A stretch of DNA of 64,000 bases from a phage: the NCBI GenBank assembly GCA_012549035.1, contig GCA_012549035.1_4805.1, one strand, 5' to 3'. The translations under genes and the position numbers were made by a program. Within the stretch, counting starts at the first letter, position 1; every line of letters begins with the position of its first letter. Positions 1,052 to 55,927 of the stretch are shown here, piece by piece. Under the pieces are notes generated by a model. The model was not told the DNA's origin, did not search any database, and was given only the letters and a program-made list of their open reading frames with translations.

Positions 1052-3232
1052 TCACCACTTCAAAGGTGTAGCAGTAAGGTTGTTTATGTCGTTGATATCA
1101 TCTTGTTCAAGCACCCGTTTCGTTTCGAATGCCGTGCTGCGTGGGTCTTGAGCGCCGTTGACGTTGATGACAACGTTTTTCTGACCCATAGTAATATCAC
1201 GCCCACCAGGTCGACTATTCGCGGAAAGGTCGCCGCCATATTTCTGGAATGCTTCAAGCTGGAATGCAGCAAGACGAGCGTTTTTCATCGCTTCGGCTTG
1301 AATGTTCGGTCTTACACCTGGAGTTGAAGCCAGTTGCATGTTTTTAATATAATCCCTTTGCGTGCCAAGCTTAAGGTAAGTTTGAGCAAAGTCAATATCA
1401 CCTTTGTTGACTTGTCCCTGCATCAACTGCTCAACTGGTACGTTCAGGTATCCTGCAATGGCTTCTTGCAATTGCCTGTATTGCACCGTTTGGCGCGATT
1501 GGCCTTGTACTGGTGCATAGCTGCCCTTTGGCGCTTCCGCTCCGCTACCGCTAAGTACTGGAGTAACTGGTGCACCTTGCGGCGCTGCCGTGGCATACTC
1601 ACCATTGGATTGTCGGTCGAGAGCGGCCATGACCTTTCCAGGATAAGCGCGTGTATTCTTGCCCCAGCCGCTGCGGTCGTAGCCACCGTGATACATCGTC
1701 AGCGCAAGATTCCAATCGCCGTTGGCAGCGTTTAAATACTCTTTCAACAGTTGAGCGCCGCCCATAATGTTTTGTCGAGGATCATTGCCATCGGTTATTC
1801 CAAGACCCTTGAAGTTAGAAGGCATTATTTGCATCAAACCAGTCGCGCCTGCTCCGCTCACAGCATTTGGATTGAATCCAGATTCAACTTCAGTCACGGC
1901 CTTCATCATCGCCACAGGTATGCCATAGCGTTTTGAAGCTTCCTCATATATTGAGTCATACGCTGTCGGGTTTCCTGACCCAAGATTATTCCCTATGGTC
2001 GCGCCAGTATTCAATGCAGGCGTTCCAGGCATCGCGGATTGCCCTGCGCTGCGCCCAATTTCACCTGCCCATGCCGCCCAAGCTTGACGCTCATCAATCA
2101 CGCCAGCAAAAGTTGACACGGCGCTTGAAAAAAGATTTATATCACGAGTGAAAAGCGCCTGTGCAGAACGTTGTTCAGCAGCGTTCTGCTCTTGATTCCT
2201 CTGGCGTTTCACATCGCCGTCTGCCATCTGCGTGATCCATCTATCAACGGCACGCTCGTGACGCTCGTTGACAGCGGCCTGCTTGTCGAACGGATGTTTC
2301 AAGTCAGCAATGAAATTGTCGACAAATTCGCTCCATCCGTCAGACATTCTTTGGAACATCATCTGGAATCCTTCGACTGTATCGGCGGTTTTGCTGACAA
2401 GCGTCGAGAATGCAGGCATAACGTTTTCACCGATGACCAGTTCAATACGCCGCCAATCTTCTTGAATTTGCCCCATACTATTTCGTATAGTCTCAAGAGC
2501 AGCTTGCTGTCTTTGCAGCTTCGCGGTTTCTTCGTCACTTATGCGCGTGCTTTCTTTCACAGACTGGTTGCGCTCACGAAGGGCGCGGACTTCATCAGCC
2601 GTGAATCCTGCCAGAGCACCAATGGCACGCGCGGTTTGCTCATTAACACTTCTCAGCTTTGTTCCAATTTCATCAAGCAGCTGATTCGTGTCTTTGATGC
2701 CGCCGTTACTGTTGAAAGGACTTGCCCCCATCTTGTTCAGCAACAAGTTGTCCTTGTTCATCACATCAGGGTTGGTGTATGCATTGAATGCCAAATTAGA
2801 AGCTTTGCTGATTAAATCGCGCGACCCCTGTGCGCCAAGGATGCCCCCTGAACTTTCATTCAACTGTCGTTGTAGTTGTTCGACACCCATTGGAGAGAGT
2901 CCGGCTTCAAAACCAAGCTTTCTTTGCGCTTCGTATTCTTTTCGAACATCAACGATGGATTTGACGACGACGGCCAATCCTGCGACAACAGGAACGAGCG
3001 CGGCAAAACGATATGTCAGCCGCGCAAGGATTCCGTCAATAGACCCCAGTTCAGCTGTGAGAGGCTTCAGCTCACCAAACACATCTTTGAATGCTCCGGT
3101 GAAGTCTTTACCAGCGGCCTTTGCCTTTTTGTTTGTCTGATCAACCTTATCTTGCAATTGCTCAAGACGATTGATGGACTCTTTCAAGTCCACCGTATAT
3201 TGAAGCACAAATTTTTCTAATGAGTCAGACAC
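1052..3232 (-). CDS. tail tape measure protein with soluble lytic transglycosylase (SLT) domain
   Basis: 726 aa; N-terminal coiled-coil-like region and hydrophobic segment AALVPVVAGLAVVV; SLT-like block VTEVESGFNPNAVSGAGATGLMQIMP...AQLLKEY; lies after the tube/assembly genes. Confidence 0.8.
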   Translation of the reverse strand: MSDSLEKFVLQYTVDLKESINRLEQLQDKVDQTNKKAKAAGKDFTGAFKDVFGELKPLTAELGSIDGILARLTYRFAALVPVVAGLAVVVKSIVDVRKEYEAQRKLGFEAGLSPMGVEQLQRQLNESSGGILGAQGSRDLISKASNLAFNAYTNPDVMNKDNLLLNKMGASPFNSNGGIKDTNQLLDEIGTKLRSVNEQTARAIGALAGFTADEVRALRERNQSVKESTRISDEETAKLQRQQAALETIRNSMGQIQEDWRRIELVIGENVMPAFSTLVSKTADTVEGFQMMFQRMSDGWSEFVDNFIADLKHPFDKQAAVNERHERAVDRWITQMADGDVKRQRNQEQNAAEQRSAQALFTRDINLFSSAVSTFAGVIDERQAWAAWAGEIGRSAGQSAMPGTPALNTGATIGNNLGSGNPTAYDSIYEEASKRYGIPVAMMKAVTEVESGFNPNAVSGAGATGLMQIMPSNFKGLGITDGNDPRQNIMGGAQLLKEYLNAANGDWNLALTMYHGGYDRSGWGKNTRAYPGKVMAALDRQSNGEYATAAPQGAPVTPVLSGSGAEAPKGSYAPVQGQSRQTVQYRQLQEAIAGYLNVPVEQLMQGQVNKGDIDFAQTYLKLGTQRDYIKNMQLASTPGVRPNIQAEAMKNARLAAFQLEAFQKYGGDLSANSRPGGRDITMGQKNVVINVNGAQDPRSTAFETKRVLEQDDINDINNLTATPLKW

Positions 3233-3235
3233 AGT

Positions 3236-3652
3236 TTACCCCTTGTTTGGAGTCTCGCCGCTGAGGAATGGCGCGATTAATCGCATCGATTCGCCGATGA
3301 ATGCTGCAGCCATTTCGCCGCCAGCTTGTTCCCAGTAGCCTTCACGCTCGGCGTGAGTATCTGGGTTTATACCGTTCTCCATGAGGACTGCTTCGAAGAC
3401 TTCTTTAAGGTTTTCCCAGTCACCAAGATGGTTGTCAATTAGTGCACCAGTACTTAATGGGATTTCTTGGCCCACATCAAGCTCGACTTTTGCGAAGCTC
3501 AACACTTCCATCGTATACTCTGAACGAAAAGCAGGGTCTTTCGACATTGCAAATTCGACAAAGCGACGCTGAATATTCCAGCCTTCCATCGCAGTCATTT
3601 TGCTGATTTTAATTTCTACTGTACGACCAGTTTGTTTGTTGGTGATCTTCAT
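3236..3652 (-). CDS. hypothetical tail assembly protein (138 aa)
   Basis: ORF packed tightly immediately upstream of the tape-measure gene, same strand. Confidence 0.55.
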   Translation of the reverse strand: MKITNKQTGRTVEIKISKMTAMEGWNIQRRFVEFAMSKDPAFRSEYTMEVLSFAKVELDVGQEIPLSTGALIDNHLGDWENLKEVFEAVLMENGINPDTHAEREGYWEQAGGEMAAAFIGESMRLIAPFLSGETPNKG

Positions 3653-3653
3653 T

Positions 3654-4214
3654 TTATATTCCTACTGTTGATTTTATTTTATTATATAACGAACTCACAG
3701 TTGTAGTCAAACTGACTGGTTCTTTAATAGCAACACCATTTGATGATTCGTCTGCAGATTGTTTAGGGTCGAAGCTTCCTTGAATGCTAAATGACGTTTG
3801 CTCGAAGGTTATTACTATTGAGACTCCATTCAAGTTTTCTTCTGACTGGGTTATTTCAACGTCGGACATCGACATTTTACTGGCAATGATGCTTCGTGAA
3901 GTTATTGAAAATGTGACTTCGTCATCATCAAATGAATTTATGATATTTTCAATTGTAGACTGGTCATTGCAAATTACGTTTAACGCCATATGGGCTGGCA
4001 TTACAACCTTTGTCGCCTGTAAATTGCTTACTGATGACGTGCTTGATACTTCGACAACCTGCATGGCTGTACCAGCAAGAGGGAATTGAGTTGTTTCTGC
4101 TGGGGATGTTATTTCTGCAGAAACAGGTGAAAGCCTTGTCCAGACAGGAAGACCTGTTGACTCATTCGTTATGGTCAAAGATTGACCAGAAAGCAGAATC
4201 GAAACGAAGTCCAT
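3654..4214 (-). CDS. hypothetical tail protein (186 aa)
   Basis: ORF in tail module, 1-nt spacing to neighbours. Confidence 0.55.
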   Translation of the reverse strand: MDFVSILLSGQSLTITNESTGLPVWTRLSPVSAEITSPAETTQFPLAGTAMQVVEVSSTSSVSNLQATKVVMPAHMALNVICNDQSTIENIINSFDDDEVTFSITSRSIIASKMSMSDVEITQSEENLNGVSIVITFEQTSFSIQGSFDPKQSADESSNGVAIKEPVSLTTTVSSLYNKIKSTVGI

Positions 4215-4747
4215 CAGAACATCCCCTTGATACCATTCATCACCTTTGTAGCGACGCCAGTGACGCTGGCAGAAGTTTCTTTTATGTATGCAATGCCGCG
4301 CTCTATTACTGTTGAGTCGCCTGCCTGCGCTGTTTGAATAGACACATCCTGCTGTGTTAATATCTCATGGAAGACCAATTGTATGGGCTGAGACGTTATA
4401 TTGTCAGCGTCCTGGCTGAAGTTGTTATTTTGCAGCACCATACGTTCGAATATTAGACCACGGGAATTAATTGTGTATATAGTCGACCTGTTTTGCAACA
4501 TCTTGGCTATTGCATCTGATGCGCTTTTCGTCTGAGCTATCACGGTGACAGTGAGTATTCGCGGCATCTTTACTCTGCCATCGACAATATAGCTGCCGTC
4601 TTCCCTTTGGTTTTTGAATATCTTCGCTTGGAGTCTTATTTTGACGTTGACTATGGCCCATCCAAGCGTGGATACTTCTCCAAGGTTGAAGCTCTTTATC
4701 GTGAAGCTTCTGTTTGATAGACTATATGACAGTAAATCGATAGCCAT
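4214..4747 (-). CDS. hypothetical tail protein (177 aa)
   Basis: ORF in tail module, overlapping stop/start with neighbours. Confidence 0.55.
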   Translation of the reverse strand: MAIDLLSYSLSNRSFTIKSFNLGEVSTLGWAIVNVKIRLQAKIFKNQREDGSYIVDGRVKMPRILTVTVIAQTKSASDAIAKMLQNRSTIYTINSRGLIFERMVLQNNNFSQDADNITSQPIQLVFHEILTQQDVSIQTAQAGDSTVIERGIAYIKETSASVTGVATKVMNGIKGMF

Positions 4748-5244
4748 TAAATGGACCCCAATATGCTCTGCGCCACGCCCTTGGCAATTTGAGACGTGCT
4801 CTGCGCGCCGCCGTAGCTGGCAAACACAAATGTGTATCGGTTTGTCTTGCGACGGCCTGATTGCTCTATGGAGTCACCAAGCGGACCGCTGATTATTGTT
4901 CCGTTAGAGAATGCCACCCTTCCACCGTCAGGATATGTAATAAGCATTGATGTCACATCCTGAATTGGCAACCACTTGAATCCCCCTTTACGGGCAGATA
5001 ATAAAAGCTTAAGATTTATGTCATCTTCAGTGTTTGGAATGACCGCAATGGATACGCGAACGACGGCGGCTTTGTCGTATATGCAAATGCCGCCGTCGTA
5101 AGTAAGTTGATAACCTACTGATTCAACTTCCTCAATAATTAGCGAATCCTGGTCATCAGACAAAGAACTGATATTCAGCCCAACAGGAAAAGATTGAAGA
5201 GCGACAATTCTAATGCTTGTGCCAAATCCACTAATATTGACCAT
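4747..5244 (-). CDS. tail tube-like protein, paralog of 6195..6662
   Basis: N-terminus MVNISGFGTSIRIVALQSFPVG aligns with MINVSGFGASIRLVASNTFPNG of 6195..6662; further shared blocks along the length. Confidence 0.6.
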   Translation of the reverse strand: MVNISGFGTSIRIVALQSFPVGLNISSLSDDQDSLIIEEVESVGYQLTYDGGICIYDKAAVVRVSIAVIPNTEDDINLKLLLSARKGGFKWLPIQDVTSMLITYPDGGRVAFSNGTIISGPLGDSIEQSGRRKTNRYTFVFASYGGAQSTSQIAKGVAQSILGSI

Positions 5245-5246
5245 GT

Positions 5247-5513
5247 TTACTCCGCAGATGCAGATTTAACTGCAGCAAGAATTTCATCCTTATAAGAAAG
5301 ACCCTTGATGTCGATGCCATTTTCTTTGGCATAAGACTTCAATTCTGAAACGCTCATGGAATCAAAATCGAGTTTTTGTTCAACGGACTTTTCTTCGACC
5401 TGCTCTTTGATTTCTGTAACAGACTCAACCTTCTTATTAAACAGCTCTGATGCGTCTTCAAATTTTTCGCCAAATTTCATGACGCCATTTGCAAAATGAA
5501 TTACTTGTGCCAT
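5247..5513 (-). CDS. hypothetical acidic protein (88 aa)
   Basis: ORF in tail module, tightly packed. Confidence 0.5.
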   Translation of the reverse strand: MAQVIHFANGVMKFGEKFEDASELFNKKVESVTEIKEQVEEKSVEQKLDFDSMSVSELKSYAKENGIDIKGLSYKDEILAAVKSASAE

Positions 5514-5869
5514 TATTGATTACTCACCTTTATACGTTCGCCATAAATAGTCACCACTTCTGCAGTGAATCCAAGGATACCGTTTTGGATGGTGACAGTC
5601 AATGAGTCGATTCCGGCAACGTCTGCTTTCTTCAGAATAGCATCTGCAATCGACTTTCGCGCACCGTCTTCGTCAACGGGCGACTTGAAAACGGTCCCCA
5701 AATAATCGACCCCGTTTTCTATATCGTACAAGTCTTCACCAAGTCGCATCTGATGCGCGGCCTTGATTACTTGCACCATCGCTTTTTCTCCTGAAAGAAT
5801 ATTTAAGTTTCTTCCATCAGGTAGAAAAAGGTCATTATTTTCGTTCACTTCAATGGTTAGAGTTGTCAA
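5513..5869 (-). CDS. hypothetical tail protein (118 aa)
   Basis: ORF in tail module, overlapping start/stop. Confidence 0.5.
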   Translation of the reverse strand: MTTLTIEVNENNDLFLPDGRNLNILSGEKAMVQVIKAAHQMRLGEDLYDIENGVDYLGTVFKSPVDEDGARKSIADAILKKADVAGIDSLTVTIQNGILGFTAEVVTIYGERIKVSNQ

Positions 5870-6195
5870 ATTGCAAACTCCGCTTCAGCAGTGGCCTGGA
5901 ATTCAGCCAACTCAGATTCTGACATGTAATATAGATTACAGCCGCCAGAGTTAAACCTTTCATAATCAGGTACGCTGTCGAAAATGAAATTACCGTACCC
6001 AATCATGAGATACTTATAAGGCACCATTGGGATACCACCAAAACAGCGCACCCCTTGAATCAAAAGTTCACCATTGCGATATACGTCGGCACACATATGC
6101 TCGATAGCGGCAAAAATGTGCAACTGCCAATATGCACCGTCAACGTTAAAGCTGATATTCTGGTTAGGTACGCTGTCAAGTGGTATTTGATACAT
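5866..6195 (-). CDS. hypothetical tail protein (109 aa)
   Basis: ORF in tail module, overlapping start/stop. Confidence 0.5.
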   Translation of the reverse strand: MYQIPLDSVPNQNISFNVDGAYWQLHIFAAIEHMCADVYRNGELLIQGVRCFGGIPMVPYKYLMIGYGNFIFDSVPDYERFNSGGCNLYYMSESELAEFQATAEAEFAI

Positions 6196-15449: not shown

Positions 15450-16301
15450 TCAAATGATTGGTATTTTTCTGCACTTGCAGTGTATTGCCCATCCAGGAGG
15501 ACCGATGTCACCCTTTTTGAACTTCAATTCGCCGCCAACTTCCCATAGGCGCTTGTCATCAAGTTTGAATCTCATTCCGTCGACGTGTTCATGAGAGATT
15601 CGCGGCTCCTTTCCTGCTCCTGAGTGCGCCCACTCAAATTCTTCGACTCCATTCTGGCGCATCCTTTCATCGCTTAGAACGCAATACAATTTGCTTGTCT
15701 GGTCTTTAGCGATCAAGTCGACTCTCTTTGCAGAGAAGTGTTTTACGTTTCGCAATGCCGCCTGAATGCCTGACGTGCCTTGCTGGGCTGGGTCGGGAGA
15801 AGTCAGCGAAAGCATGACTGCTTCGTACACTCTGTTGTGAATATCCTCGCCGACCTTAGTCACTAGAGTCGTGTTAAACTTCTCGCTTGTTCTAAGAGTG
15901 TTCTCAACGAATTTGTTATATGTGGCCTTTGGCGCTTCTATGCCTGCGGACTTAAGGCTTGCGAATGTAGCAGAAGTGGCACCCTTTTCGACCGATTTGA
16001 TAAAATCAGCGGCAATCTTCGACCCAACACGTGCAAACGCCTTTGCCCATTTCAGTTGCAGCCGTTTCATAAGGGTCTGGAATGTCGAATCAGCAGAGTC
16101 TTGCGCAAAAAACTTCTGCACCTGCTTCTTGTCAAGCCATTCTGAAATGCCTGCCTGATAGTCATCAATCATCGCATAGCAAAGACCTTTCATCTCACGA
16201 CGATAGGCCATCGCGATTGCGTTGGATGGGATTATCGGACTGCCGCGCCCGACTCTATCGGGTAAGCGGCGTTCACGTTTTTTCGAAGCTTTAAAAGCCA
16301 T
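15450..16301 (-). CDS. head morphogenesis protein (SPP1 gp7 / Mu F-like)
   Basis: Downstream of portal; C-terminal block HEHVDGMRFKLDD...GPPGWAIHCKCR typical of this family; start taken at ATG 16301 (MAFKASKK). Confidence 0.65.
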   Translation of the reverse strand: MAFKASKKRERRLPDRVGRGSPIIPSNAIAMAYRREMKGLCYAMIDDYQAGISEWLDKKQVQKFFAQDSADSTFQTLMKRLQLKWAKAFARVGSKIAADFIKSVEKGATSATFASLKSAGIEAPKATYNKFVENTLRTSEKFNTTLVTKVGEDIHNRVYEAVMLSLTSPDPAQQGTSGIQAALRNVKHFSAKRVDLIAKDQTSKLYCVLSDERMRQNGVEEFEWAHSGAGKEPRISHEHVDGMRFKLDDKRLWEVGGELKFKKGDIGPPGWAIHCKCRKIPII

Positions 16302-24988: not shown

Positions 24989-25016
24989 AAGGCGCTGAAA
25001 AGCGCCTTTACTTTAT
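24989..25016 (+). terminator. intrinsic terminator after tail fiber gene
   Basis: AAGGCGCT-gaaa-AGCGCCTT then T-rich TACTTTAT. Confidence 0.5.
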
Positions 25017-25034
25017 GCGCTATTAAGTTATACT
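25007..25034 (+). promoter_or_regulatory. sigma70-like promoter (TTTACT-N16-TATACT)
   Basis: Same element class as the island promoters; upstream of gene 25065. Confidence 0.35.
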
Positions 25035-25064
25035 CATTATACGTTAACAAGTGAGGTGAATGAA

Positions 25065-25346
25065 ATGAAATTTGAATACATCGATAAGGCCCAAAAAGCA
25101 AAGGCGCTGCCTAAATATGTCATCTGTGGTATTGATCCTGAAGATAACCGCTTGGTCTTCTTAAAGCAAGTTGATAGCAATGAATCTGGCGATGCAGTTA
25201 ATTGGTGCATTCCTTTGTTTGAGACAGCAGAAGAAGCCCAGAAAGTATTGTCAGAAAGCAATCTGCCTAAACACTACAACGTGATTTCACAAGATGACAT
25301 GGCAAAATTAGTGTTTAATTTTATGGATATTGGAGAAAGGTTCTAA
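25065..25346 (+). CDS. hypothetical protein (93 aa)
   Basis: ATG at 25065 with GAGGTG upstream. Confidence 0.5.
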   Translation: MKFEYIDKAQKAKALPKYVICGIDPEDNRLVFLKQVDSNESGDAVNWCIPLFETAEEAQKVLSESNLPKHYNVISQDDMAKLVFNFMDIGERF

Positions 25347-26778: not shown

Positions 26779-26995
26779 CCTGCCGCGCAGGAGTGTACTG
26801 CAAAATTCCTGTGGGTACAAAATAGTACGGTACTGTCTAGGGCTTTTTCTTTGAAAAGTTAGTGGACCAAATGTGTCGTATTTTGATTAGTGTACCGCAA
26901 ATTTCATCAAGTACCAAAACGCACCAAAAGACCCATGCCATAAAAACCACACGAACGCAATAATCAATCGCCGTTACAGTTTCCAGCGTTACAAT

Positions 26996-27056
26996 TCGAA
27001 AGCGAATGATTCGACGCATAATAATATGAAGCACAATGATTCGAAAGCGAATGATT
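26996..27056. repeat. direct repeat ATTCGAAAGCGAATGATT x2
   Basis: Two copies about 44 bp apart inside the 600-bp non-coding gap. Confidence 0.6.
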
Positions 27057-27373
27057 GTGTGTAGGATAATATCGGTGGGGATTATTCGAGATGCATGTAA
27101 TTTCGCATGCGTACTATTTTCGGGCGAAGGGTCGGCATATTCCTCGTTTTAGTTCGGAACGAAGGGAAAGTTTTGCGCCTTTATAAAACAACGACTTACG
27201 CGACCCGCCCTAACGGTCCGATATAGGTGTCTATATAAAACAAGGACTTACTCGATGTTCTCCATTTAACGTAATACCTGTTATGCGAACTAAGGCGCAT
27301 CTCGATGAAGATTATGCGACGAAGAAGGGAAGGATAAAGGAGTTTTTTGCGGAGAAGCGCATCGAGATAGGGA

Positions 27374-27401
27374 CGAAGAAAAGCCGCGACTAAGCGCGGC
27401 C
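27374..27401 (-). terminator. intrinsic terminator (minus strand)
   Basis: On minus strand GCCGCG-cttagt-CGCGGC followed by TTTTCTTCG, 26 nt after stop of 27427..27636. Confidence 0.55.
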
Positions 27402-27426
27402 TATTAGTAACGGTGGGTGATTATAA

Positions 27427-27636
27427 TTAAAGGAATAATCCGGCGCGTTTAATTTGCCCAAGGACGTTATCGCGACGGCGACGCATAACCGCGTATTTAA
27501 CTTCTTCTTCGTATCCCCAGCCGCCGATGGATAACATCGCGTTCATATTATCGCATAATTCCTTAAGCTCGCGAAACATATCGATTACGGCGGTGCGATG
27601 GGCGCGCGCGTTAAGAGAGTTATTCATATTAGTCAT
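27427..27636 (-). CDS. hypothetical protein (69 aa)
   Basis: RBS AAGGAG; second gene of a two-gene minus-strand operon; CpG-rich codon usage. Confidence 0.55.
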   Translation of the reverse strand: MTNMNNSLNARAHRTAVIDMFRELKELCDNMNAMLSIGGWGYEEEVKYAVMRRRRDNVLGQIKRAGLFL

Positions 27637-27646
27637 TTTCTTCTCC

Positions 27647-27937
27647 TTAAAGGCTTACGATTTTAAAGTAAGTTACTTCGCCGCCGAGTTGCGGTACAGC
27701 GATATATTCGCCGCCGATTTCGGTGATCGTATAAACGAATCCGTTAATCGTTACGCGGTAGGATACGATGTCCTCGTCGCGATACTTGTAAAGGTCGAGG
27801 AAGTTGATCGGCTCATAAATAGACTCGATAATCGCGTCGACGTTAGAGAGATAAACGCTCTCTAAGGTTTCGCCAAATACGTTAGAGTTTTCGGAAGTTT
27901 CGACGCGAGCGGCGCGGATAGCGGATAAAGTAATCAT
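27647..27937 (-). CDS. hypothetical protein (96 aa)
   Basis: RBS AGGAG 6 nt upstream of ATG; preceded by promoter cassette and leader hairpin. Confidence 0.6.
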   Translation of the reverse strand: MITLSAIRAARVETSENSNVFGETLESVYLSNVDAIIESIYEPINFLDLYKYRDEDIVSYRVTINGFVYTITEIGGEYIAVPQLGGEVTYFKIVSL

Positions 27938-27961
27938 AATATTCTCCTAGTTAGTCGGGAG

Positions 27962-27982
27962 GGTAGCGACCTATTCGCTACC
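27962..27982 (-). promoter_or_regulatory. conserved 5'-UTR hairpin (cassette copy 1)
   Basis: On minus strand GGTAGCGA-atagg-TCGCTACC flanked by GGGA...TCCC; covaries with copy at 28524..28544. Confidence 0.45.
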
Positions 27983-28004
27983 TCATCCCCTCTCGATATA
28001 AAAC

Positions 28005-28033
28005 ATTATAGCCTTAGTGTACGAATAAGTAAA
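28005..28033 (-). promoter_or_regulatory. promoter cassette copy 1 (TTTACT-N17-TATAAT)
   Basis: Minus-strand GCTTTACTTATTCGTACACTAAGGCTATAATGTTTTATATCGAGAGGGG; near-identical to the 28473 and 28403 copies. Confidence 0.5.
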
Positions 28034-28043
28034 GCACTTTTCG

Positions 28044-28346
28044 TTATTTTGCGATAAAATATTTGTAAGCCTTATCGCCTTCTACGTCGATATACTCGAC
28101 GATAATTAATGCTTCGCCGCGCGGCGTAACCGTCTCGATAAGGGTAACGGCTTCGTCGTCGGTCTTCGCGAAGCGGATGGCGCTACGTTCGGCGTACTTG
28201 ATATCGTCGAAGGAAAGACCGACGAAGGCGACCGCGCGGACCTTAATGGCGCTAGATTCTAGTTCGGCGTTAACGGCGGCGATAAGAGAGCGAACGGTTA
28301 AACGGTCTTCGTCGTAAGTAAGGATGGAAGAGATTAAAGTGGTCAT
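28044..28346 (-). CDS. hypothetical protein (100 aa)
   Basis: ATG at 28346 with GGGAG-TTTTATT-ATG arrangement identical to neighbouring genes; track N-terminal TTG extension rejected. Confidence 0.55.
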   Translation of the reverse strand: MTTLISSILTYDEDRLTVRSLIAAVNAELESSAIKVRAVAFVGLSFDDIKYAERSAIRFAKTDDEAVTLIETVTPRGEALIIVEYIDVEGDKAYKYFIAK

Positions 28347-28402
28347 AATAAAACTCCCGATGCTAGTGGAAGGAAGGGCCATCGCCCGTCTCGATATAAA
28401 CA

Positions 28403-28430
28403 AGTATACGTGAGTGTACGAAGAAGTAAA
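28403..28430 (-). promoter_or_regulatory. promoter cassette copy 3 (TTTACT-N16-TATACT)
   Basis: Minus-strand CTTTACTTCTTCGTACACTCACGTATACTTGTTTATATCGAGACGGG. Confidence 0.45.
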
Positions 28431-28472
28431 GAAAAAGATAAATAATTTATCTCATTTTTATCGAAAAAGTGC

Positions 28473-28500
28473 TTTACTTTTTTCTACACTATATTATAAT
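28473..28500 (+). promoter_or_regulatory. promoter cassette copy 2 (TTTACT-N16-TATAAT)
   Basis: GCTTTACTTTTTTCTACACTATATTATAATGTACTCATATCGGGACGGG upstream of gene 28570. Confidence 0.5.
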
Positions 28501-28523
28501 GTACTCATATCGGGACGGGATGA

Positions 28524-28544
28524 GTTGACGAATAGGTCGTTAAC
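28524..28544 (+). promoter_or_regulatory. conserved 5'-UTR hairpin (cassette copy 2)
   Basis: GTTGACGA-atagg-TCGTTAAC with compensatory changes relative to the 27962 copy; followed by CTCCC-AAACT-AGGAG-ATG. Confidence 0.45.
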
Positions 28545-28569
28545 ACTGCTCCCAAACTAGGAGTTTATT

Positions 28570-29208
28570 ATGGCCAGTTTGAATCGTTTCTCCACCAGCG
28601 GCGACGTAATCGCAACCAAGACAGCCGACCTCGTTGCATTCTATAACGAAAATTCAGGCTCAAAGCCGATTAAAAAATTCGCGGACCGCCGGACCGCCGA
28701 GACTCGCGTAATCGCGTTAATCGAGTCCTTAAACGCGCTCGATGAGCCGTCCAACGAATCGCCCATCCCAGACGTGAAGGCGCGTGAGGAAGTGTCCAGC
28801 GATGTAAAAACGCATAAGGCGCGTGCGGTCGTTAAAAAGGCTGAGCCGACCCAGGAAGAACTCGACGCGATGAGTGATGAAGAGTATGAAGCCTTCGTTA
28901 AGAGCAGCCTTAATAGCGCTCCGGTTGGCGCTCCGGTTGGCGCGGATAAAATTGCCAGCCCTTCCCATCGCCGTTCGAATAGCGAAGGTATTGCAAAAAG
29001 TTGGGATAACAAGGAAGTGGCGCAAAAGCGTCTCACCCGTAACGGCGTTATGGTCGAGGGTGTAGGCGAGTTCAAATCGGTCCGCGTAGCGTTCGCCGCG
29101 CTGGGATTACCGGATAGCAAGCACATTCGCTTCCGCATGAAGCTTAAAGAAGCTGGACGCTTGAACTTCGAGTTCGGCAACAAGTCCTACACCTTCCAGA
29201 TTATCTAA
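28570..29208 (+). CDS. hypothetical protein (212 aa)
   Basis: RBS AGGAG; CpG-rich codon usage; Ala/Pro-rich linker APVGAPVGA; terminator directly downstream. Confidence 0.65.
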   Translation: MASLNRFSTSGDVIATKTADLVAFYNENSGSKPIKKFADRRTAETRVIALIESLNALDEPSNESPIPDVKAREEVSSDVKTHKARAVVKKAEPTQEELDAMSDEEYEAFVKSSLNSAPVGAPVGADKIASPSHRRSNSEGIAKSWDNKEVAQKRLTRNGVMVEGVGEFKSVRVAFAALGLPDSKHIRFRMKLKEAGRLNFEFGNKSYTFQII

Positions 29209-29215
29209 TCGAATG

Positions 29216-29237
29216 GCGGCCCTTCGGGGTCGCTTTT
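29216..29237 (+). terminator. intrinsic terminator
   Basis: GCGGCCC-ttcg-GGGTCGC followed by TTTT; mirror image of the stem at 26752. Confidence 0.6.
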
Positions 29238-29258
29238 CATAGTGCAAATTGGTGGCTT

Positions 29259-29522
29259 ATGAATACGCTTATTCTCATCGCTACGTTGTCCATCGGAAGT
29301 GGTCGCACCTTATCCCTTTATGATCATAGTGCAAATTGCGCTTACCCAACGCGCGTTGCGGCGATAGTTAATAGTGCAAATCGAATGCTATTCGAGACTT
29401 GTTGGCGGGTCGATAACGAGAAAGGGCGCATCGTCTTAGGTTATAGTGCAAATCTGCTGGTGGAGTCGTTCGACTGGACGGCGGAAGGTCGTAAATTGTT
29501 ACGTAAAGTGACTAAAAGATGA
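29259..29522 (+). CDS. possible small protein (87 aa) overlapping repeat array
   Basis: ORF with island-type codon usage; three in-frame motif copies each encoding SAN; may be non-coding. Confidence 0.35.
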   Translation: MNTLILIATLSIGSGRTLSLYDHSANCAYPTRVAAIVNSANRMLFETCWRVDNEKGRIVLGYSANLLVESFDWTAEGRKLLRKVTKR

Positions 29523-29583
29523 CTTATAATAATACACTTTCTAACGCGTTTATGGCTGCAGCCTTCCCCGTCGTATTACCGAT

Positions 29584-29624
29584 GGCCCTAGAAGTGGAGA
29601 AAATGTGTTCTAGGGCCGTTTTAT
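29584..29624 (+). terminator. terminator-like inverted repeat
   Basis: GGCCCTAGAA-N14-TTCTAGGGCC followed by GTTTTAT. Confidence 0.45.
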
Positions 29625-29636
29625 AGTGCAAATTGG

Positions 29637-30110
29637 CTAGTGGCGGGAGAATTGCTCACCCTCTTTGGCCGCCTCTCCAAAATCCTTGTAGAAATCGTCC
29701 ATGGAACGGCCCATTTTACTATTGCCATTCTCATCAATCATCGTGATGCCGTAGATGATATTCAGTTCACGAATGGCATTAAGCTTGGCTGATGCCGCGA
29801 CTTCTGGATCACGCACAAGCTTCACTAAATTGTGAATGGAACTCTTTACACTCCACAATTCCTTCAATGGCATCTCTTCCATACGCTTTTTGTAGCGCAT
29901 CTTGTAGTACGGATTGCGTTGCGTGCAGAGGATTCGCTGGCCAGTGTAGTTATCGGTCGCAACCTCCATGCCAAATACTAGTGCAAAAGCTGCGCGCATG
30001 TCATGGCCCTGAATAACAAGGTCAATGAACTCATCGAATAATGCCTGATTATGCTCTGCAAATCGCGGGTCTTCAAAGTCTTCAGGCATTGCTACATAAT
30101 CTTGACTCAT
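29637..30110 (-). CDS. hypothetical protein (157 aa), possible small terminase-like DNA-binding protein
   Basis: ATG at 30110 lies inside a motif copy; track TTG extension to 30305 rejected; weak resemblance to small-terminase N-terminal helix pattern, identity uncertain. Confidence 0.55.
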   Translation of the reverse strand: MSQDYVAMPEDFEDPRFAEHNQALFDEFIDLVIQGHDMRAAFALVFGMEVATDNYTGQRILCTQRNPYYKMRYKKRMEEMPLKELWSVKSSIHNLVKLVRDPEVAASAKLNAIRELNIIYGITMIDENGNSKMGRSMDDFYKDFGEAAKEGEQFSRH

Positions 30111-30338
30111 AGTGCAAATCCCATAGTGCAAATTAATAGTGTGAATTATACAATGATTGAACATTATATTCAAGTGCAGATTGATGTTCAAATTGGCTGT
30201 AAACGTACATAAATCATAGTGCTGAATGAATATCGGACCGTGGTGCGTGGTGTACTGTTTGATACGTATAAAAGAAATCCATCCCTTTCGCCGCTTGTTA
30301 TGCAAATCAATGACTTAGCCGCTGCTGGCTGGTTGAAG

Positions 30339-30612
30339 CGTATCATGACGTATCATCCGTATTGCCGCAAGTCTTTGTTTTTACTTATATCTTACGGATA
30401 ATACGTTAAATATATAAATTAACATAAGTATGAGGATGTAGAAAAAAATTAATTTAAATTAATTCAAAATGGAGTTAATTAATTTTTGAAATAATTCTGG
30501 TTACAATAAGGAAAAATGGCGTATCATCCGTATCATCCGTAAGATTCAGTGTACAAATCCAGGCGCGGCGCACCCTAGCGCCATGATACGGATAAAAACC
30601 TATCCGTAAGAG
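30339..30612. repeat. iteron-rich intergenic region B
   Basis: CGTATCAT(G/C) tandem units at 30339-30364 and 30519-30547; 29-bp segment GCGTATCATCCGTATCATCCGTAAGATTC identical to 14265-14293; AT-rich palindromes at 30410-30490; AATCCAGGCGCGGCGC x2. Confidence 0.7.
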
Positions 30613-47904: not shown

Positions 47905-48773
47905 GCATTAAAAACAGCGAAATCTTAAACGTATTCGACCTTGACGGAACGCTGTTTGATGACCGTTGGCGCTTAGACCGCATCAAGGTGGCAGGTCCGT
48001 TGTCAGACTATGATGACTATCACAGCGGTATTGGTTATGATCAGTTCTATCCTCACATTGCATCAGCAGTAGAGTCGGCATCTCTTCGCGGTGAGGCGGT
48101 TGAATATTGGACTGCAAGGCCAGAAAAATACAGACAAGTGACTTTTGAACGTCTGGACAATGTTTTCCCTTTTGATGAATTTACAATCAAGATGAGAGAC
48201 TATGGCGACAAACGTCCATCAACTATTATGAAATCTGCATGGCTATCGCACGCTTTGCGGCACGGCGATTATCGAATCATCAATGTATTCGACGACCGAC
48301 AAGACGTACTCGCGCGGATGCAAGATGAAGCATTGTATTATAACTCCGTTGCTCAAAATAAAATCGCTTTTACATTTAATCTTTGCAAAGCAGGTGAAGT
48401 GGTGCAACAATTAGCAATTGATCCAAGCGCAACAGGGCAAGAAGAGACTAAGGCTGTGGAAGTTGAACAATCTCCGGCAACTGCCGCCGATATTCTTGAT
48501 GCGATGGCCGCGACCTTCCGTGAGCGCAATGCCGTTTATGGCGATAACGCTGTGATGGTAGGTCAGGTTATGCAGGTGTTGTTCCCTAATGGCGTAACTT
48601 TGAAGACACCGGAAGACTACCACATGTGGCATCTGTTCGAGCTTAAGATTGTCAAGCTTACACGCTTCGCAATCAGCGGCCTGAAGCACGAAGACTCAAT
48701 ACGCGACGATGGTGTTTATAGCGCCATGTGTGAACGTCTTGTAAACACCCATAATATTAATTTCAATAAATAG
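47901..48773 (+). CDS. HAD-superfamily phosphatase fused to C-terminal domain of unknown function
   Basis: HAD motif I VFDLDGTLFDD and motif IV-like NVFDDRQD; about 140-aa unknown C-terminal domain. Confidence 0.55.
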   Translation: MSIKNSEILNVFDLDGTLFDDRWRLDRIKVAGPLSDYDDYHSGIGYDQFYPHIASAVESASLRGEAVEYWTARPEKYRQVTFERLDNVFPFDEFTIKMRDYGDKRPSTIMKSAWLSHALRHGDYRIINVFDDRQDVLARMQDEALYYNSVAQNKIAFTFNLCKAGEVVQQLAIDPSATGQEETKAVEVEQSPATAADILDAMAATFRERNAVYGDNAVMVGQVMQVLFPNGVTLKTPEDYHMWHLFELKIVKLTRFAISGLKHEDSIRDDGVYSAMCERLVNTHNINFNK

Positions 48774-48838
48774 TTTACTTGTGCGTTTCGATGAGTTATA
48801 TTTACCTCATCGAAACGAAGTCCAAAAAGGATAAATAA

Positions 48839-49522
48839 ATGAAAAAAGTAATTGTTGTAACAGGTTCCAATTCCGGTCTTGGTAAATCTATTTTTGACAC
48901 CCTTGGCGCTTACGGTCATAACGTGCTTGGCATCGATTCAGCATACGGATATGACGTCCGCGATGCTAAACAGATGAAAGAAATTTTAAGCCCATGTGAT
49001 GTTGAAGGCTTGATCAACTGTGCTGGTGTCAACTCTAACAATTGGTTTGAAGATGTAAACTATGAAGAGTTTAACCGCGTTATGCACACCAACGCATTCT
49101 CTTTCGTTAACACGACTCAGGCTGCGCTGAAAAGTCTTATCGACAACAAAGGCTTTGTGATCAACATCGTTTCCAACGCTGCGCATATTCCTATGACGTC
49201 CAGCTTGTGTTATAATGCATCCAAGGCCGCTGCGCTTATGATCAGCAAGCAGATGGCTCACGAACTTACGCCTAAGTACGGCATCACGGTATTCTCTATT
49301 AGTCCTAACAAGTTGCGCGGCACTGGCATGTCTAAACAGATTGAAGATGCCGTTTGCGCGACTCGCGGCTGGACTCCTGAATACGCTGCTGAATACCAGA
49401 AAAAGGCATTGATGAATGGATTGGAAACTGAGCCGCAAGTAATTGCTGACTTCATTCGCCATATCTTAATTACGGGCGCATGGCGCTTTATGTCTGGCAC
49501 TGATATTCCATTTGGTAAATAA
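48839..49522 (+). CDS. short-chain dehydrogenase/reductase (SDR) family protein
   Basis: TGSNSGLG cofactor motif and YNASK catalytic motif. Confidence 0.65.
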   Translation: MKKVIVVTGSNSGLGKSIFDTLGAYGHNVLGIDSAYGYDVRDAKQMKEILSPCDVEGLINCAGVNSNNWFEDVNYEEFNRVMHTNAFSFVNTTQAALKSLIDNKGFVINIVSNAAHIPMTSSLCYNASKAAALMISKQMAHELTPKYGITVFSISPNKLRGTGMSKQIEDAVCATRGWTPEYAAEYQKKALMNGLETEPQVIADFIRHILITGAWRFMSGTDIPFGK

Positions 49523-54069: not shown

Positions 54070-55589
54070 AAACACAAGGAATGCGCCACCAATTATTGGC
54101 GCTTGATAAAGCAGGCCGCAGAAAATACTTTGCTTATTTCATGGAGCAGGGTCTTGGTAAAACCTGGACTGCTTTGGCAGAGTTTGAAAAGCATTTCACC
54201 GCTGGCGCATTTGACGCCATGGTTGTCATCGCTCCTAATGGTGTACACTCAAACTGGATTCGTCGTGAAGCGCCAGAGCACCTTTCCATCAAGTGGATTG
54301 GGCATTACTGGCGCGGCAATGACAAGATGAAAACTAAAAAGGGCAAAGCAATTTGGGAGAAGATGTTTGCTGATCACTATCCTGAAGGTGAAGTGCCTGC
54401 GCGCATCTTCTCATTCAACATTGACACGGTGAATACGCCAGTCGGTTATCAACACATTGAGTCCGTACTGAAGAAGTACCGCTGTTTGATGATCATTGAT
54501 GAATCGACGCGTATCAAAAATAACACAGCCAAGCGTTCCATCAAGGTTGTGGAATTGGGACGGCTGGCAAAGGCCCGTCGAATCCTTTCCGGTACGCCGC
54601 TGCCGCGCTCGCCTGCTGATATTTACATGCAGTATCACTTCCTTGAAGCTGGCTTGCTTGGCACCAAATCGTTCCGTGCATTCAATTCTGAATTCACGGT
54701 GCTGCTTGAAGCGCACGACCCAGAGATGCAGGCCATTCTCAAGAAAATCGGCGGCAACGGTTATGGCATTCCGCAAGTGCCGCGCAAAGACCAGTTTGGC
54801 CGACCGATGTATAAAAACCTTGACAAGCTTATCCGGCTGATGGAGCCGCACTATTTCCGCGCGACAAAAGCGGAATACCTGCCGGAACTTCCAGAGAAGG
54901 TGTACAAGTTTATCGACTTCGAGTTGTCGCCTAAGCAGCGCGATGTCTATGATGAACTCAAGAATGAGTACAACTATCTGATGGAGTATAAAGGCGAAGA
55001 AGAAAACGTTAAGTTTGAGATGATCGCATCTCGCACTAAGATGAAGCAGGTGACATCAGGCTTTGTTAAGGTGTATGATGAGATGGTCTACATGGAAGAT
55101 AACCCACGATTCACGGCCTTTAAGGACTATGTTGAAGGGGTGTTGGAAGATGACCCAGAGCGCAAATTCATTGTGTGGGCAATCTTTAAGGAAGAGATGA
55201 ACCAGATTAAGGATTGGCTTGAGTCTGAAGGCGTGGTCACTGGTGTGTACAACGGTGAAACGTCAAAAGAGCAGCGCGAGTTCTTGATTGATGACTTCCA
55301 GAAAAACACAGTCGAGAACGGTGGGACGCAAGTCTTAGTTTGTCACGCTGCAGCGGCAGGCATCGGAATCACGCTTACCGCCGCCGACTTGGCAATCTAT
55401 TATTCTTGCAACTATGACAACGAGTTGCGCAAGCAATCCGAAGACCGAAATCACCGCATCGGCACCAAATCAAGCGTGTTGTATGTTGATTTTATTGGGG
55501 TTGATACCATCGACGAAGAAATTCAGCGTTCATTGAGTATGAAGTCTATGCTTGCTGATCACATCCTCGACGGCAAAAAGATGAATTAA
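54066..55589 (+). CDS. SNF2-family helicase
   Basis: Walker A GLGKT, DExx box LMIIDESTR, conserved C-terminal helicase motifs. Confidence 0.75.
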   Translation: MKTQGMRHQLLALDKAGRRKYFAYFMEQGLGKTWTALAEFEKHFTAGAFDAMVVIAPNGVHSNWIRREAPEHLSIKWIGHYWRGNDKMKTKKGKAIWEKMFADHYPEGEVPARIFSFNIDTVNTPVGYQHIESVLKKYRCLMIIDESTRIKNNTAKRSIKVVELGRLAKARRILSGTPLPRSPADIYMQYHFLEAGLLGTKSFRAFNSEFTVLLEAHDPEMQAILKKIGGNGYGIPQVPRKDQFGRPMYKNLDKLIRLMEPHYFRATKAEYLPELPEKVYKFIDFELSPKQRDVYDELKNEYNYLMEYKGEEENVKFEMIASRTKMKQVTSGFVKVYDEMVYMEDNPRFTAFKDYVEGVLEDDPERKFIVWAIFKEEMNQIKDWLESEGVVTGVYNGETSKEQREFLIDDFQKNTVENGGTQVLVCHAAAAGIGITLTAADLAIYYSCNYDNELRKQSEDRNHRIGTKSSVLYVDFIGVDTIDEEIQRSLSMKSMLADHILDGKKMN

Positions 55590-55663
55590 TATCAAAAATA
55601 ATTTGACTTGTCACGGAAGATGAGTCATAATTACTTCATCGAAACGAAACAGAGGAATACAAA

Positions 55664-55927
55664 ATGGTACGCATCCTTGAACGTTACAAAAATGAAGCTA
55701 CTGGAGTAATCGCTTTCAAACGTCTTTTGGTCAAAGAAATTGACGGAATGTTCCGCGTTGTTAAAGAGTTTGATTATGGCAACGGTGCTGGGGTGAATAC
55801 CGTTATTATGCCTGGCATCAAGGCATATAAAACCTTAAAAGGCGCTGAGAAGGCTTTGGCGGCTTGGAAACCTGAACGTTATCAAATGACCCGTGTTGAA
55901 GGGCTAATGCAAGAAGGTAAAATATGA
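55664..55927 (+). CDS. hypothetical protein (87 aa)
   Basis: ORF with RBS-like GAGGAA upstream. Confidence 0.5.
   Translation: MVRILERYKNEATGVIAFKRLLVKEIDGMFRVVKEFDYGNGAGVNTVIMPGIKAYKTLKGAEKALAAWKPERYQMTRVEGLMQEGKI

Follow-up and report, generated by a model that had tools for sequence, protein, structure and literature searches.

Why should one promoter-like element be repeated three times within 640 bp of phage DNA, and why should its leader carry a hairpin that changes in sequence while its pairing is kept? The DNA concerned is a stretch of 64,000 nucleotides from a phage (contig GCA_012549035.1_4805.1 of NCBI GenBank assembly GCA_012549035.1), hereafter called the window, and the three copies, which we call cassettes A (minus strand), B (minus strand) and C (plus strand), lie between positions 27,938 and 28,569. 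An earlier note, made from the sequence alone, had described them as three near-identical promoter-leader cassettes with a covarying hairpin in the 5' untranslated region (UTR) of two, and had proposed that the hairpin is a translational operator, an RNase III site or an RNA thermometer. Our analysis instead favors, with a probability of roughly 0.5, portable immediate-early expression cassettes equipped with a cis-acting structural 5'-UTR hairpin. That these are portable early promoter-leader cassettes whose RNA hairpin is under structural selection is much firmer than any specific role assigned to that hairpin.

The region 27400-29300 of the window is 92-95% identical to about 30 Escherichia and Shigella myophages of the genus Wifcevirus, including ECML-117, FEC19, WFC, WFH, Mansfield and Bas98-101, and the identity of the window with ECML-117 and related phages is 95%. 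Phage Mansfield has a 3.7-kb direct terminal repeat, annotated with PhageTerm (positions 2497-6169 of its locus, L001), that covers the stretch homologous to the cassette region, and homology to Mansfield predicts a direct terminal repeat at approximately 26927..30470 (no strand) in the phage of the window. Judged by this homology, the three cassettes lie inside the direct terminal repeat of an ECML-117-like Wifcevirus and therefore on DNA that would be present at both genome ends and be the first to enter the cell. This context had escaped the earlier note, as had the paralogous genes, the modular gene swapping and the occurrence of the same type of cassette in jumbo phages, all described below. 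Wifceviruses have been reported to replicate extremely fast (PMC11990801), which makes their immediate-early expression signals worth attention; no promoters, mapped starts or leader hairpins of Wifcevirus or Asteriusvirus were found described in the literature searched. For the comparisons below, cassette sequences were taken from 20 Wifcevirus loci, and junctions were compared by BLAST between the window and 15 relatives.

A promoter scan together with the sequence itself revealed three sigma-70-like promoters, at 28033..28005 (minus), 28430..28403 (minus) and 28473..28500 (plus), exactly where the earlier note had placed its elements. The promoter of cassette A (28005..28045, minus) consists of an A-tract, the −35 hexamer TTTACT (28033..28028), a 17-nt spacer containing TTCGTACACT and the −10 hexamer TATAAT (28010..28005). 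That of cassette B (28403..28440, minus) has TTTACT (28430..28425), a 16-nt spacer also containing TTCGTACACT and TATACT (28408..28403), and that of cassette C (28465..28500, plus) has an A-tract, TTTACT (28473..28478), a 16-nt spacer containing TTCTACACT and TATAAT (28495..28500). The hexamers agree with the sigma-70 consensus at 10, 9 and 10 of 12 positions in A, B and C, respectively. A/T tracts precede all three promoters, and the AT-rich divergent spacer between the back-to-back promoters B and C (28432..28471, no strand) carries A/T tracts resembling UP elements. A 19-nt core, CTTTACTTNTTCGTACACT, is found in the three promoters with 0, 0 and 2 mismatches, where only 0.04 matches are expected by chance, which supports the promoter-leader cassettes as such; a further match of the core at 15813 was dropped because it has no −10 box. 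Directly after each promoter comes (T)ATATCGRGA, so that the first transcribed bases, ATATCGRGA, would be common to A, B and C; the corresponding initial transcribed sequence (ITS) is ATATCGAGA in A (27991..27999, minus), where it is conserved, and in B (28389..28397, minus), and ATATCGGGA in C (28507..28515, plus). The promoter of cassette A is kept in every Wifcevirus locus examined. The short motif ATCGRRAS showed no enrichment in the window outside promoter contexts, and a scan of IMG/VR for the −10 box plus ITS returned only Wifcevirus-like and Asteriusvirus-like contigs. The term "near-identical" holds for the −35 box, the 5' half of the spacer, the −10 box and the ITS, but not for whole cassettes, which in the Mansfield orthologues are 75% identical between A and C and only about 59% identical between A and B or B and C. 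Likewise, the distance of about 60 nt to the gene given earlier can be corrected to 56-69 nt between the −10 box and the ATG.

The leaders of cassettes A and C are predicted to fold into a hairpin of two tiers, namely an outer GGGA/UCCC helix, an internal loop, and an inner helix of 7-8 bp capped by the loop AUAGG. In cassette A (27957..27989, minus) the inner helix is formed by GGUAGCGA (27982..27975) and UCGCUACC (27969..27962) around the loop at 27974..27970, which gives 8 + 4 bp; in cassette C (28517..28553, plus) it is formed by UUGACGA (28525-28531) and UCGUUAA (28537-28543) around the loop at 28532-28536, which gives 7-8 + 4 bp. The earlier note quoted these stem sequences correctly but assigned the hairpin to the first and second of its copies, while it actually belongs to the first and third. 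The pattern GGGATGAG-N4-CGAATAGGTCG-N4-C, with an expectation of 0, occurs exactly twice in the window, in A (27962-27989, minus) and in C (28517-28544, plus). Folding, which the earlier note had suggested as a check, gave a minimum free energy of −20.1 kcal/mol and a z-score of −4.25 for the hairpin of A, with none of 200 shuffled sequences as stable, and −12.7 kcal/mol with a z-score of only −2.0 for that of C in the window. The sense strand of C is more stable than its antisense strand (−12.7 versus −10.8 kcal/mol), and the two strands of A are equally stable (−20.1 versus −20.0 kcal/mol).

The compensatory change claimed for this hairpin withstood a wider comparison. Between A and C of the window, two of the eight pairs are changed on both sides (G-C/U-A and G-C/A-U) and one pair becomes G·U. 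When the 14 distinct variants among the 20 Wifcevirus loci (8 A hairpins and 6 C hairpins) were aligned, 97.3% of the cells of the inner helix were paired, and three pairs were changed on both sides (G-C/U-A, U-A/A-U and G-C/A-U). The observed pairing score was reached in none of 500 column shuffles, and a partner strand slid out of register paired at only 17-56%. One-sided changes shared by several phages form G·U pairs on the sense strand; those in the stem of C are A-to-G changes (UUAACGA, UUAGCGA and UUGACGA opposite UCGUUAA), which give G·U in the sense strand only. The outer helix is also re-formed with other sequences, as a GGGG/CCCU type in EC150 and as GACGGG/CCCGUC in the C copy of TH35. 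Above the varying stem, no A or C copy from at least 20 phages departs from the apical 11-nt sequence CGAAUAGGUCG, although shared descent could explain this invariance. These observations support the view that the pairing is conserved and that selection maintains base pairing of the leader hairpin as sense-strand RNA. A covariance model, the search the earlier note had called for, scored the A copy at 69 bits and the C copy at 60.5 bits; with filters off it recovered both known copies and found no further one in the window or in the Asteriusvirus repeat described below, the next match having an E-value of 0.42. With gathering thresholds, Rfam returned nothing for the entire window, and for 27400-29000 it returned nothing even at E ≤ 10. 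Pattern scans of IMG/VR and metagenomes returned only Wifcevirus genomes with stems already seen and thus no added covariation power; five further matches in these data, lacking both promoter and pairing, were discarded as chance.

The hairpin does not occupy the Shine-Dalgarno (SD) sequence. It ends at 27957 in A and 28553 in C, and the SDs lie at 27948 and 28559, which leaves 8 and 5 unpaired nucleotides between them. The SD of gene A, AGGAG (27944..27948, minus), is predicted to be unpaired with a probability of 0.96, and the probability ranges from 0.61 to 0.96 over all A and C variants. The Wifcevirus hairpins start 15-23 nt 3' of the −10 box, and no U-tract follows them. As a separate observation, the 5' arms of A (27975-27983, minus) and C (28521-28529, plus) hold a three-codon mini-open reading frame (ORF) just past the G-run, which reads AUG-AGG-UAG in A and AUG-AGU-UGA in C of the window, with UAA or UAG in the C copies of relatives, so that all three stop codons occur among the variants of C. 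It is probably coincidental, because ECO71P1 has GUG in place of its AUG, and EC150 and kaset have lost this codon.

Cassette B, in which the earlier note saw no hairpin, has a short one of its own (28373..28390, minus) with the core GGGC-GAUG-GCCC at 28387..28376. The leader of B differs from those of A and C and is shorter, and its hairpin is smaller but stands at the same position. Three different hairpin sequences are found at this position among the phages, GGGC/GCCC in the window, GAGGC-GAUGG-GCCUC in Mansfield and GGGAG-GCGUU-CUCCC in ECO71P1. In the leader of B in the window, a CUUCC tract is predicted to pair with the SD GGGAG (28347-28372, minus). In WFC, EC150 and ECO71P1, the orthologous leaders are predicted to pair more weakly or not at all at this place, and their SD is unpaired with a probability of 0.56-0.68. 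Gene B (28044..28346, minus), which encodes an acidic ORFan of 100 amino acids (aa), is followed by no terminator before cassette A, and transcripts of B should therefore read through A and carry hairpin A internally.

The genes behind the cassettes indicate how the copies arose. Gene A (27647..27937, minus) encodes an acidic 96-aa ORFan with an isoelectric point (pI) of 4.2, a paralogue of the 94-aa protein encoded behind cassette C in most relatives; with the Mansfield representative of the latter, Mansfield_005, it shares 32% amino acid identity (E = 6e-6). Gene B is unrelated to either. Because the genes behind A and C are paralogues, A and C are best read, from these sequences, as an old duplication, in inverted orientation, of promoter, leader and gene. 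Between the paralogues gene A and Mansfield_005, the coding DNA has kept only 56% identity, against a shuffled baseline of 51%, while the cassettes have kept 75%; cassette variants track the locus and not the genome, with no sign of gene conversion. Since the cassettes exceed the paralogous coding DNA in conservation and their variants are locus specific, this pattern argues for purifying selection on promoter and leader instead of gene conversion. Small acidic ORFans are encoded behind the cassettes (pI 4.05-4.7, and 4.05-4.2 behind the A/C-type hairpin), and sequence searches against Pfam, PHROG and PDB gave neither a function nor relatives for them; a match to NusA (E = 0.5) was regarded as noise.

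These genes are also exchanged. In the window, the 94-aa gene behind cassette C is deleted, and the cassette is fused directly to the gene of a basic 212-aa protein (28570..29208, plus; phrog_4730, function unknown in PHROG); the same arrangement is found in ECML-117 and RCIP0319. The deletion junction, at the SD/start region (28553..28594, plus), has two homologous counterparts in relatives, one formed by the end of cassette C plus the first part of the 94-aa gene and the other by the sequence directly preceding the 212-aa gene, as seen from overlapping BLAST segments in 12 of the 15 relatives; the segments of F13 abut differently. Depending on the phage, cassette C is followed by the 94-aa paralogue, by a 104-aa gene unrelated to it (WFC) or immediately by the 212-aa gene. 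This indel of the 94-aa gene is one of five kinds of rearrangement that occur within 2 kb among phages of about 94% identity. The other four are as follows: a 69-aa gene of phrog_10377 (27427-27636) is present in some phages and absent from others; ECO71P1 and RCIP0363 carry an insertion of 176 bp, including a 50-aa ORF, precisely at the upstream edge of cassette A (28038-28050); F13 has a tandem duplication joined at the A of the start codon of gene A (27937); and in WFC, WFH, CWP003 and Bas98 the 3' part of gene A is replaced from 27824 onward. Three of the five junction types fall at cassette edges (28038-28050, 27937 and, past C, 28553-28591), in a small sample in which intergenic junctions are to be expected anyway. 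Several details of these exchanges may be added. The 104-aa protein of WFC (positions 1654-1968 of L013) and the 94-aa protein of Mansfield (3915-4199 of L001) are 16% identical and have the first residues MAI in common. In F13 (2199-2606 of L009), the 3' part of gene B and cassette A are tandemly duplicated, and the first cassette A is left without a start codon. The 69-aa product of the phrog_10377 gene (minus strand) is a basic protein annotated as a "transcriptional regulator," which is present in the window, ECML-117, F13 and SP13 and absent from most relatives, and the junctions of this module are clean at 27426 and 27657. A terminator-like hairpin at 27381..27402 (minus), annotated as a terminator in Mansfield, WFH and WFC, ends the leftward unit that consists of B, A and, where present, the 69-aa gene.

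The same design was found in phages otherwise unrelated to Wifcevirus. Outside that genus, a BLAST search with cassette A gave a 25-nt exact match, ATAATGTTTTATATCGAGAGGGGAT, which includes the ITS, in intergenic DNA of 350-kb Asteriusvirus jumbo phages, including 121Q, PBECO4 and K64-1. In vB_Ec-M-J the match sits in a direct terminal repeat of 21.5 kb, where 25 cassettes precede 25 small genes, each in the form AAAAAGTACTTGCA-N17-TATAAT-GTTTTACATCGAGAG, followed by a G-run/C-run hairpin of 7-9 bp, CUAAC or ACUA, an SD and ATG. The 25 hairpins comprise 21 distinct sequences and all have z-scores below −2 (mean −4.1), and they start mostly 12 nt after the −10 box. Helix positions 4, 6, 7 and 8 are occupied by alternative Watson-Crick pairs, and the only non-Watson-Crick pairs within the core helices are G·U; A·C pairs appeared only where automatic helix extension overran the hairpin, in two cassettes. 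These leaders were folded sequence by sequence, as an alignment by MAFFT and RNAalifold mis-registered the helix. Order and spacing agree with those of Wifcevirus, from AAAAAGTNCTT through the −35 box, N17, TATAAT, GTTTTAYATCGAGAG and the G-run/C-run hairpin to CUAAC or ACUA and the SD, and so do the location in a terminal repeat and the small ORFans behind. In contrast to the single helix with a loop of 3-5 nt in Asteriusvirus, the A/C hairpins have an additional inner 8-bp helix with the invariant AUAGG loop, and the −35 box is TTGCA/TTGACA in Asteriusvirus but TTTACT in Wifcevirus. Because the covariance model of the A/C hairpin fits the best Asteriusvirus copy (the nonsignificant match at E = 0.42) by deleting the inner helix, these sequences fit the idea that the A/C hairpin is the common G/C hairpin with an inner helix added. 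No account of the early cassettes in Asteriusvirus terminal repeats was found in the literature searched.

Two observations on the vB_Ec-M-J repeat (L022, 1-21525) stand apart from these comparisons. The palindrome AGTACT occurs twice per promoter, overlapping the upstream side of the −35 box (AAAAAGTACTTGCA) and, in many cases, a second time directly ahead of the −10 box (AGTACTGTATAAT); the spacer block TTCGTACACT of Wifcevirus contains GTAC, and the spacers of Pantoea phage Kyle have ACAC at the same place. A regulator might bind at this AGTACT/GTAC motif. For EcMJ_009, the start codon given in the annotation (ATG at 5251, within 5225-5275) falls inside the loop of a cassette hairpin, AGGGAGAA-AUGG-UUCUCCCU, and the true start is probably further downstream.

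Phage Kyle is a distant relative of the Wifceviruses, with a homologue of the 212-aa protein that is 47% identical and with conserved synteny and the CTTTACTT-N17-TATAAT promoter. In its two leftward cassettes the hairpins differ in sequence, reading GAAGGGG-AAAUGAA-CCUCUUC and GGC..CGG-AAUAGA-CCG..GCC, and its two rightward cassettes have short leaders with neither hairpin nor G-run; homology between genes 6 and 7 of Kyle and the gene A family was not significant. The structure that the earlier note wished to see in orthologous leaders is thus present in relatives, also with other stem sequences, and the hairpin is a recurrent element, fixed in position, variable in sequence and optional.

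How might such a cassette work? From 5' to 3' it would comprise an A/T-rich tract, the promoter CTTTACTT-N17-TATAAT, the purine-rich ITS AUAUCGAGAGGGG, a GC-rich hairpin, an unpaired ACUAAC-like linker and a strong SD, with the G-run of AUAUCGAGAGGGG serving as the 5' arm of the hairpin and a complementary C-run as the 3' arm. When the terminal repeat enters the cell, host RNA polymerase would fire the cassette promoters at once. The purine-rich start, AUCGAGAGGGG, is SD-like and presumably resembles the escape-proficient ITS of the T5 N25 promoter. In the nascent 5' UTR the hairpin would then fold as a structural module acting in cis, dependent on pairing but not on the sequence of the stem. 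Our best guess is that it locks an SD-like purine run and an anti-SD-like pyrimidine run into one helix, where both would be neutralized, so that the linker and the true SD may stay single-stranded whichever gene is attached, and that it might also give the 5' end of the mRNA some protection. The neutralizing helix would fit the prediction of an open SD for every A and C variant and the lack of the G-run in the hairpin-less leaders of Kyle. The cassettes would also mark the borders for gain, loss and exchange of small early genes, a role already described for the elements discussed in the next paragraph, since promoter and leader are conserved over about 100 bp and the genes behind them are not.

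The closest known system is the promoter-early stem-loop (PeSL) cassette of T4-like phages such as RB49/phi1, PST and nt-1 (Arbiol et al. 2010, PMC2839356; Comeau et al. 2014, PMC4122927). In this repeated element, a near-consensus sigma-70 promoter preceded by an AT-rich tract is joined to an adjacent GGGG...CCCC stem-loop and an SD/ATG; the element precedes ORFans in hyperplastic regions and mediates the recombination that shuffles genes there (PMC2839356, PMC4122927). The Wifcevirus cassettes share the repeated composite of about 100 bp, the AT-rich tract and near-consensus early promoter, a polyG-then-polyC stem-loop (GGGA.../...UCCC in A and C, GGGC/GCCC in B) and the SD with ATG. Like PeSLs, they stand in repeated copies, three in 640 bp, before small ORFans without assigned function in a hyperplastic region where genes appear to be gained, lost or replaced at the elements among close relatives. 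The resemblance ends at termination. A PeSL has its stem-loop in or around the promoter, able to terminate upstream transcription, and one such stem-loop lowered the expression of a downstream lacZ as strongly as rrnB T1 (PMC2839356). In the phi1 PeSLs, whose sequences we read directly, the hairpin sits over the −35 and −10 boxes or in the space that separates them, with a T-rich −10 box after it, a placement that can terminate upstream transcripts; the Wifcevirus and Asteriusvirus hairpins, in contrast, begin 12-23 nt after the −10 box, are transcribed and have no U-tract, and cassettes B and C of Wifcevirus have no upstream gene to terminate. Moreover, Wifcevirus is not T4-like, and its cassettes reside in the terminal repeat. 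As this defining terminator feature is apparently not shared, we regard the Wifcevirus cassettes as a variant that would resemble a PeSL in working as a portable module, and not as a strict member of the PeSL type.

Other known leaders offer partial parallels. Stabilizer hairpins occur at the 5' terminus of mRNAs, as in the ompA 5' UTR and in the T7 gene 10 leader with its 5' stem-loop GGGAGACCACAACGGUUUCCC. Like the Wifcevirus leaders, these combine a GC-rich hairpin near the mRNA 5' end, an unpaired linker and a strong SD, with structure counting more than sequence, and the Wifcevirus pairing is indeed kept with different stem sequences. They differ in that their hairpin must stand at the 5' end or no more than a few nucleotides from it, and the predicted 5' tail in Wifcevirus is 4-8 nt. 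A classic role as 5'-terminal stabilizer is possible, but the match is not a clean one. The nut site of phage lambda (boxA and boxB) and the put site of HK022 also pair a short conserved sequence with a small hairpin of conserved loop and covarying stem past early promoters; however, an antitermination system of the nut/boxB kind was rejected because no terminator lies inside the early units and no N-like arginine-rich protein is found in Wifcevirus, and the stem and loop sequences are unrelated.

Several findings weigh against a structural leader hairpin of portable early cassettes as we propose it. If transcription starts 6-8 nt after the −10 box, as predicted, 4-8 unpaired nucleotides precede the hairpin, and a tail of this length reportedly lies, in the 1992 work of Bouvet and Belasco and of Emory et al., at or beyond the limit for classic 5'-terminal protection. 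Scanning RNase E readily bypasses a simple orthogonal stem-loop (PMC9943677), which also weakens the idea of the hairpin as a block to RNase E scanning. The SD of cassette B in the window is predicted to be paired (probability of being unpaired 0.02), which contradicts a simple SD-opening role there. The hairpin is missing from two Kyle cassettes and from several Asteriusvirus promoters. Single-phage mismatches are tolerated in the A/C helix (A·A in kaset and C·A in Bas98), the independent compensatory events in this helix are few, about three, and the indels would tend to map between genes in any case. Finally, the literature searches gave no start-site, half-life or expression data for any Wifcevirus or Asteriusvirus, so that promoter activity and the 5' end are here predictions.

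Alternatively, the hairpin might act on transcripts started upstream, as an attenuator, a processing signal or a protector of 3' ends between cistrons, as has been proposed and in part demonstrated for the stem-loops of PeSLs. Transcripts of B would indeed carry hairpin A internally, the 25 tandem promoters of Asteriusvirus have no terminators between their genes, so that every intergenic hairpin would be included in read-through RNA, and the PeSL stem-loop that matched rrnB T1 in cutting lacZ expression sets a precedent (PMC2839356). On the other hand, the Wifcevirus and Asteriusvirus hairpins are followed not by a U-tract but by CUAAC, ACUA or CCUUCC, and the phi1 hairpin differs from them in lying between −35 and −10 with a T-rich −10 box next to it. 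The back-to-back arrangement of B and C, with no upstream gene, leaves their hairpins only in their own 5' UTRs, and the fixed distance from the −10 box in Asteriusvirus (mostly 12 nt) suggests a link to the cassette's own transcript; we therefore think an action on upstream transcripts unlikely, though worth keeping in mind. It seems quite doubtful, too, that the A/C hairpin is a specific binding site for an early phage protein or a host factor, which would make it a translational or stability operator or a "self" tag. The invariance of the apical CGAAUAGGUCG above a varying lower stem, the similar loop of Kyle cassette 2 (CGG-AAUAGA-CCG) and the association of this hairpin type with a paralogous gene pair would suit such a site. 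Yet the translational operator of the earlier note is hard to reconcile with a hairpin that stops 8 (A) and 5 (C) nt short of the SD without overlapping the ribosome-binding site, with encoded proteins so acidic (pI 4.05-4.2), unlike RNA-binding autoregulators, and with the lack of any Rfam family match. The only annotated regulator nearby, the 69-aa protein of phrog_10377, is absent from most relatives that keep the hairpin, cassette C of the window drives a different gene, and shared descent may account for the loop, as 11 unchanged bases at 75% identity have a probability of about 0.04.

A similar degree of doubt attaches to the idea that the inverted repeat has no function as RNA and is either a passenger of a duplicated DNA module or a linker or hot spot for recombination at the DNA level. 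That A and C form an inverted duplication of promoter, leader and gene, that indel and duplication junctions fall at cassette edges and that hairpin A folds equally well in antisense are all expected on this idea, and a recombinational role has been discussed, speculatively, for the GGGG...CCCC motif of PeSLs (PMC2839356). However, compensation on both sides and intermediates that are G·U only on the sense strand would be unexpected under neutral drift or at a sequence-specific DNA site, conservation of the cassette far exceeds that of the paralogous coding DNA and no trace of gene conversion is seen, and unrelated hairpin sequences occupy the same position in the B variants, Kyle and Asteriusvirus. 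The remaining suggestions of the earlier note, an RNase III processing site or an RNA thermometer, are very improbable. A stable hairpin with an internal loop in an early leader loosely recalls the early RNase III sites of T7, and the SD of B in the window could pair with the upstream CUUCC. But the helix amounts to about 12 bp in total, split by the internal loop, where RNase III needs about two helical turns (about 20 bp), and a thermometer is contradicted by an SD and AUG that are outside the hairpin and open in A and C, by the stability of hairpin A in the window (about −20 kcal/mol), which would not melt near 37-42 °C, and by the loss of the SD pairing of B in orthologues. A more adventurous extension of the early-cassette reading, to which we give little credence, is that the hairpin and the conserved start AUCGAGAG together form a dedicated recognition element of immediate-early transcripts, shared horizontally by Wifcevirus and Asteriusvirus, through which a host or phage factor would privilege these mRNAs by nuclease protection or preferential ribosome loading; the inner helix of A/C with its AUAGG loop would then be a lineage-specific operator added to it.

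If portable early cassettes with a structural leader hairpin are the right interpretation, the concept of a promoter plus stem-loop cassette, so far reported only from T4-like phages, would extend to two more coliphage lineages, at a new location, the terminal repeats that are the first DNA to enter the cell, and in a new form, with the hairpin in the mRNA in place of a terminator. The most notable point is the recurrence of one early-expression design in terminal repeats across lineages. That a 68-kb myovirus and 350-kb jumbo phages have 25 identical nucleotides in common points to an exchange of modules between unrelated phages or to strong convergence on an optimal design for early expression in E. 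coli. The cassettes may flag sites at which small genes for host takeover or anti-defense are swapped, would supply a rule for annotating immediate-early genes in Wifcevirus and Asteriusvirus, and, as compact natural expression parts made of promoter, insulating leader and ribosome-binding site, are candidates for use in synthetic biology.

The window contains further promoter and hairpin combinations elsewhere. At 24989-25070 (plus), a fourth promoter, TTTACT-N16-TATACT, has its −35 box overlapping the 3' arm of a terminator-like hairpin, AAGGCGCUGAAAAGCGCCUU; this composite of terminator and promoter is of the classic PeSL type and is conserved in all Wifcevirus loci covering the site. A second class of promoter cassette is found outside the terminal repeat, at 48768-48842 (plus) and about 55583-55665 (plus), in which the hairpin overlaps the −10 region and the leader reads TCATCGAAACGAA-SD. 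The leader motif of this second class, ATCGAAACGA, is found as well in the hairpin-less cassettes of Kyle and in the leaders of the phi1 PeSLs.

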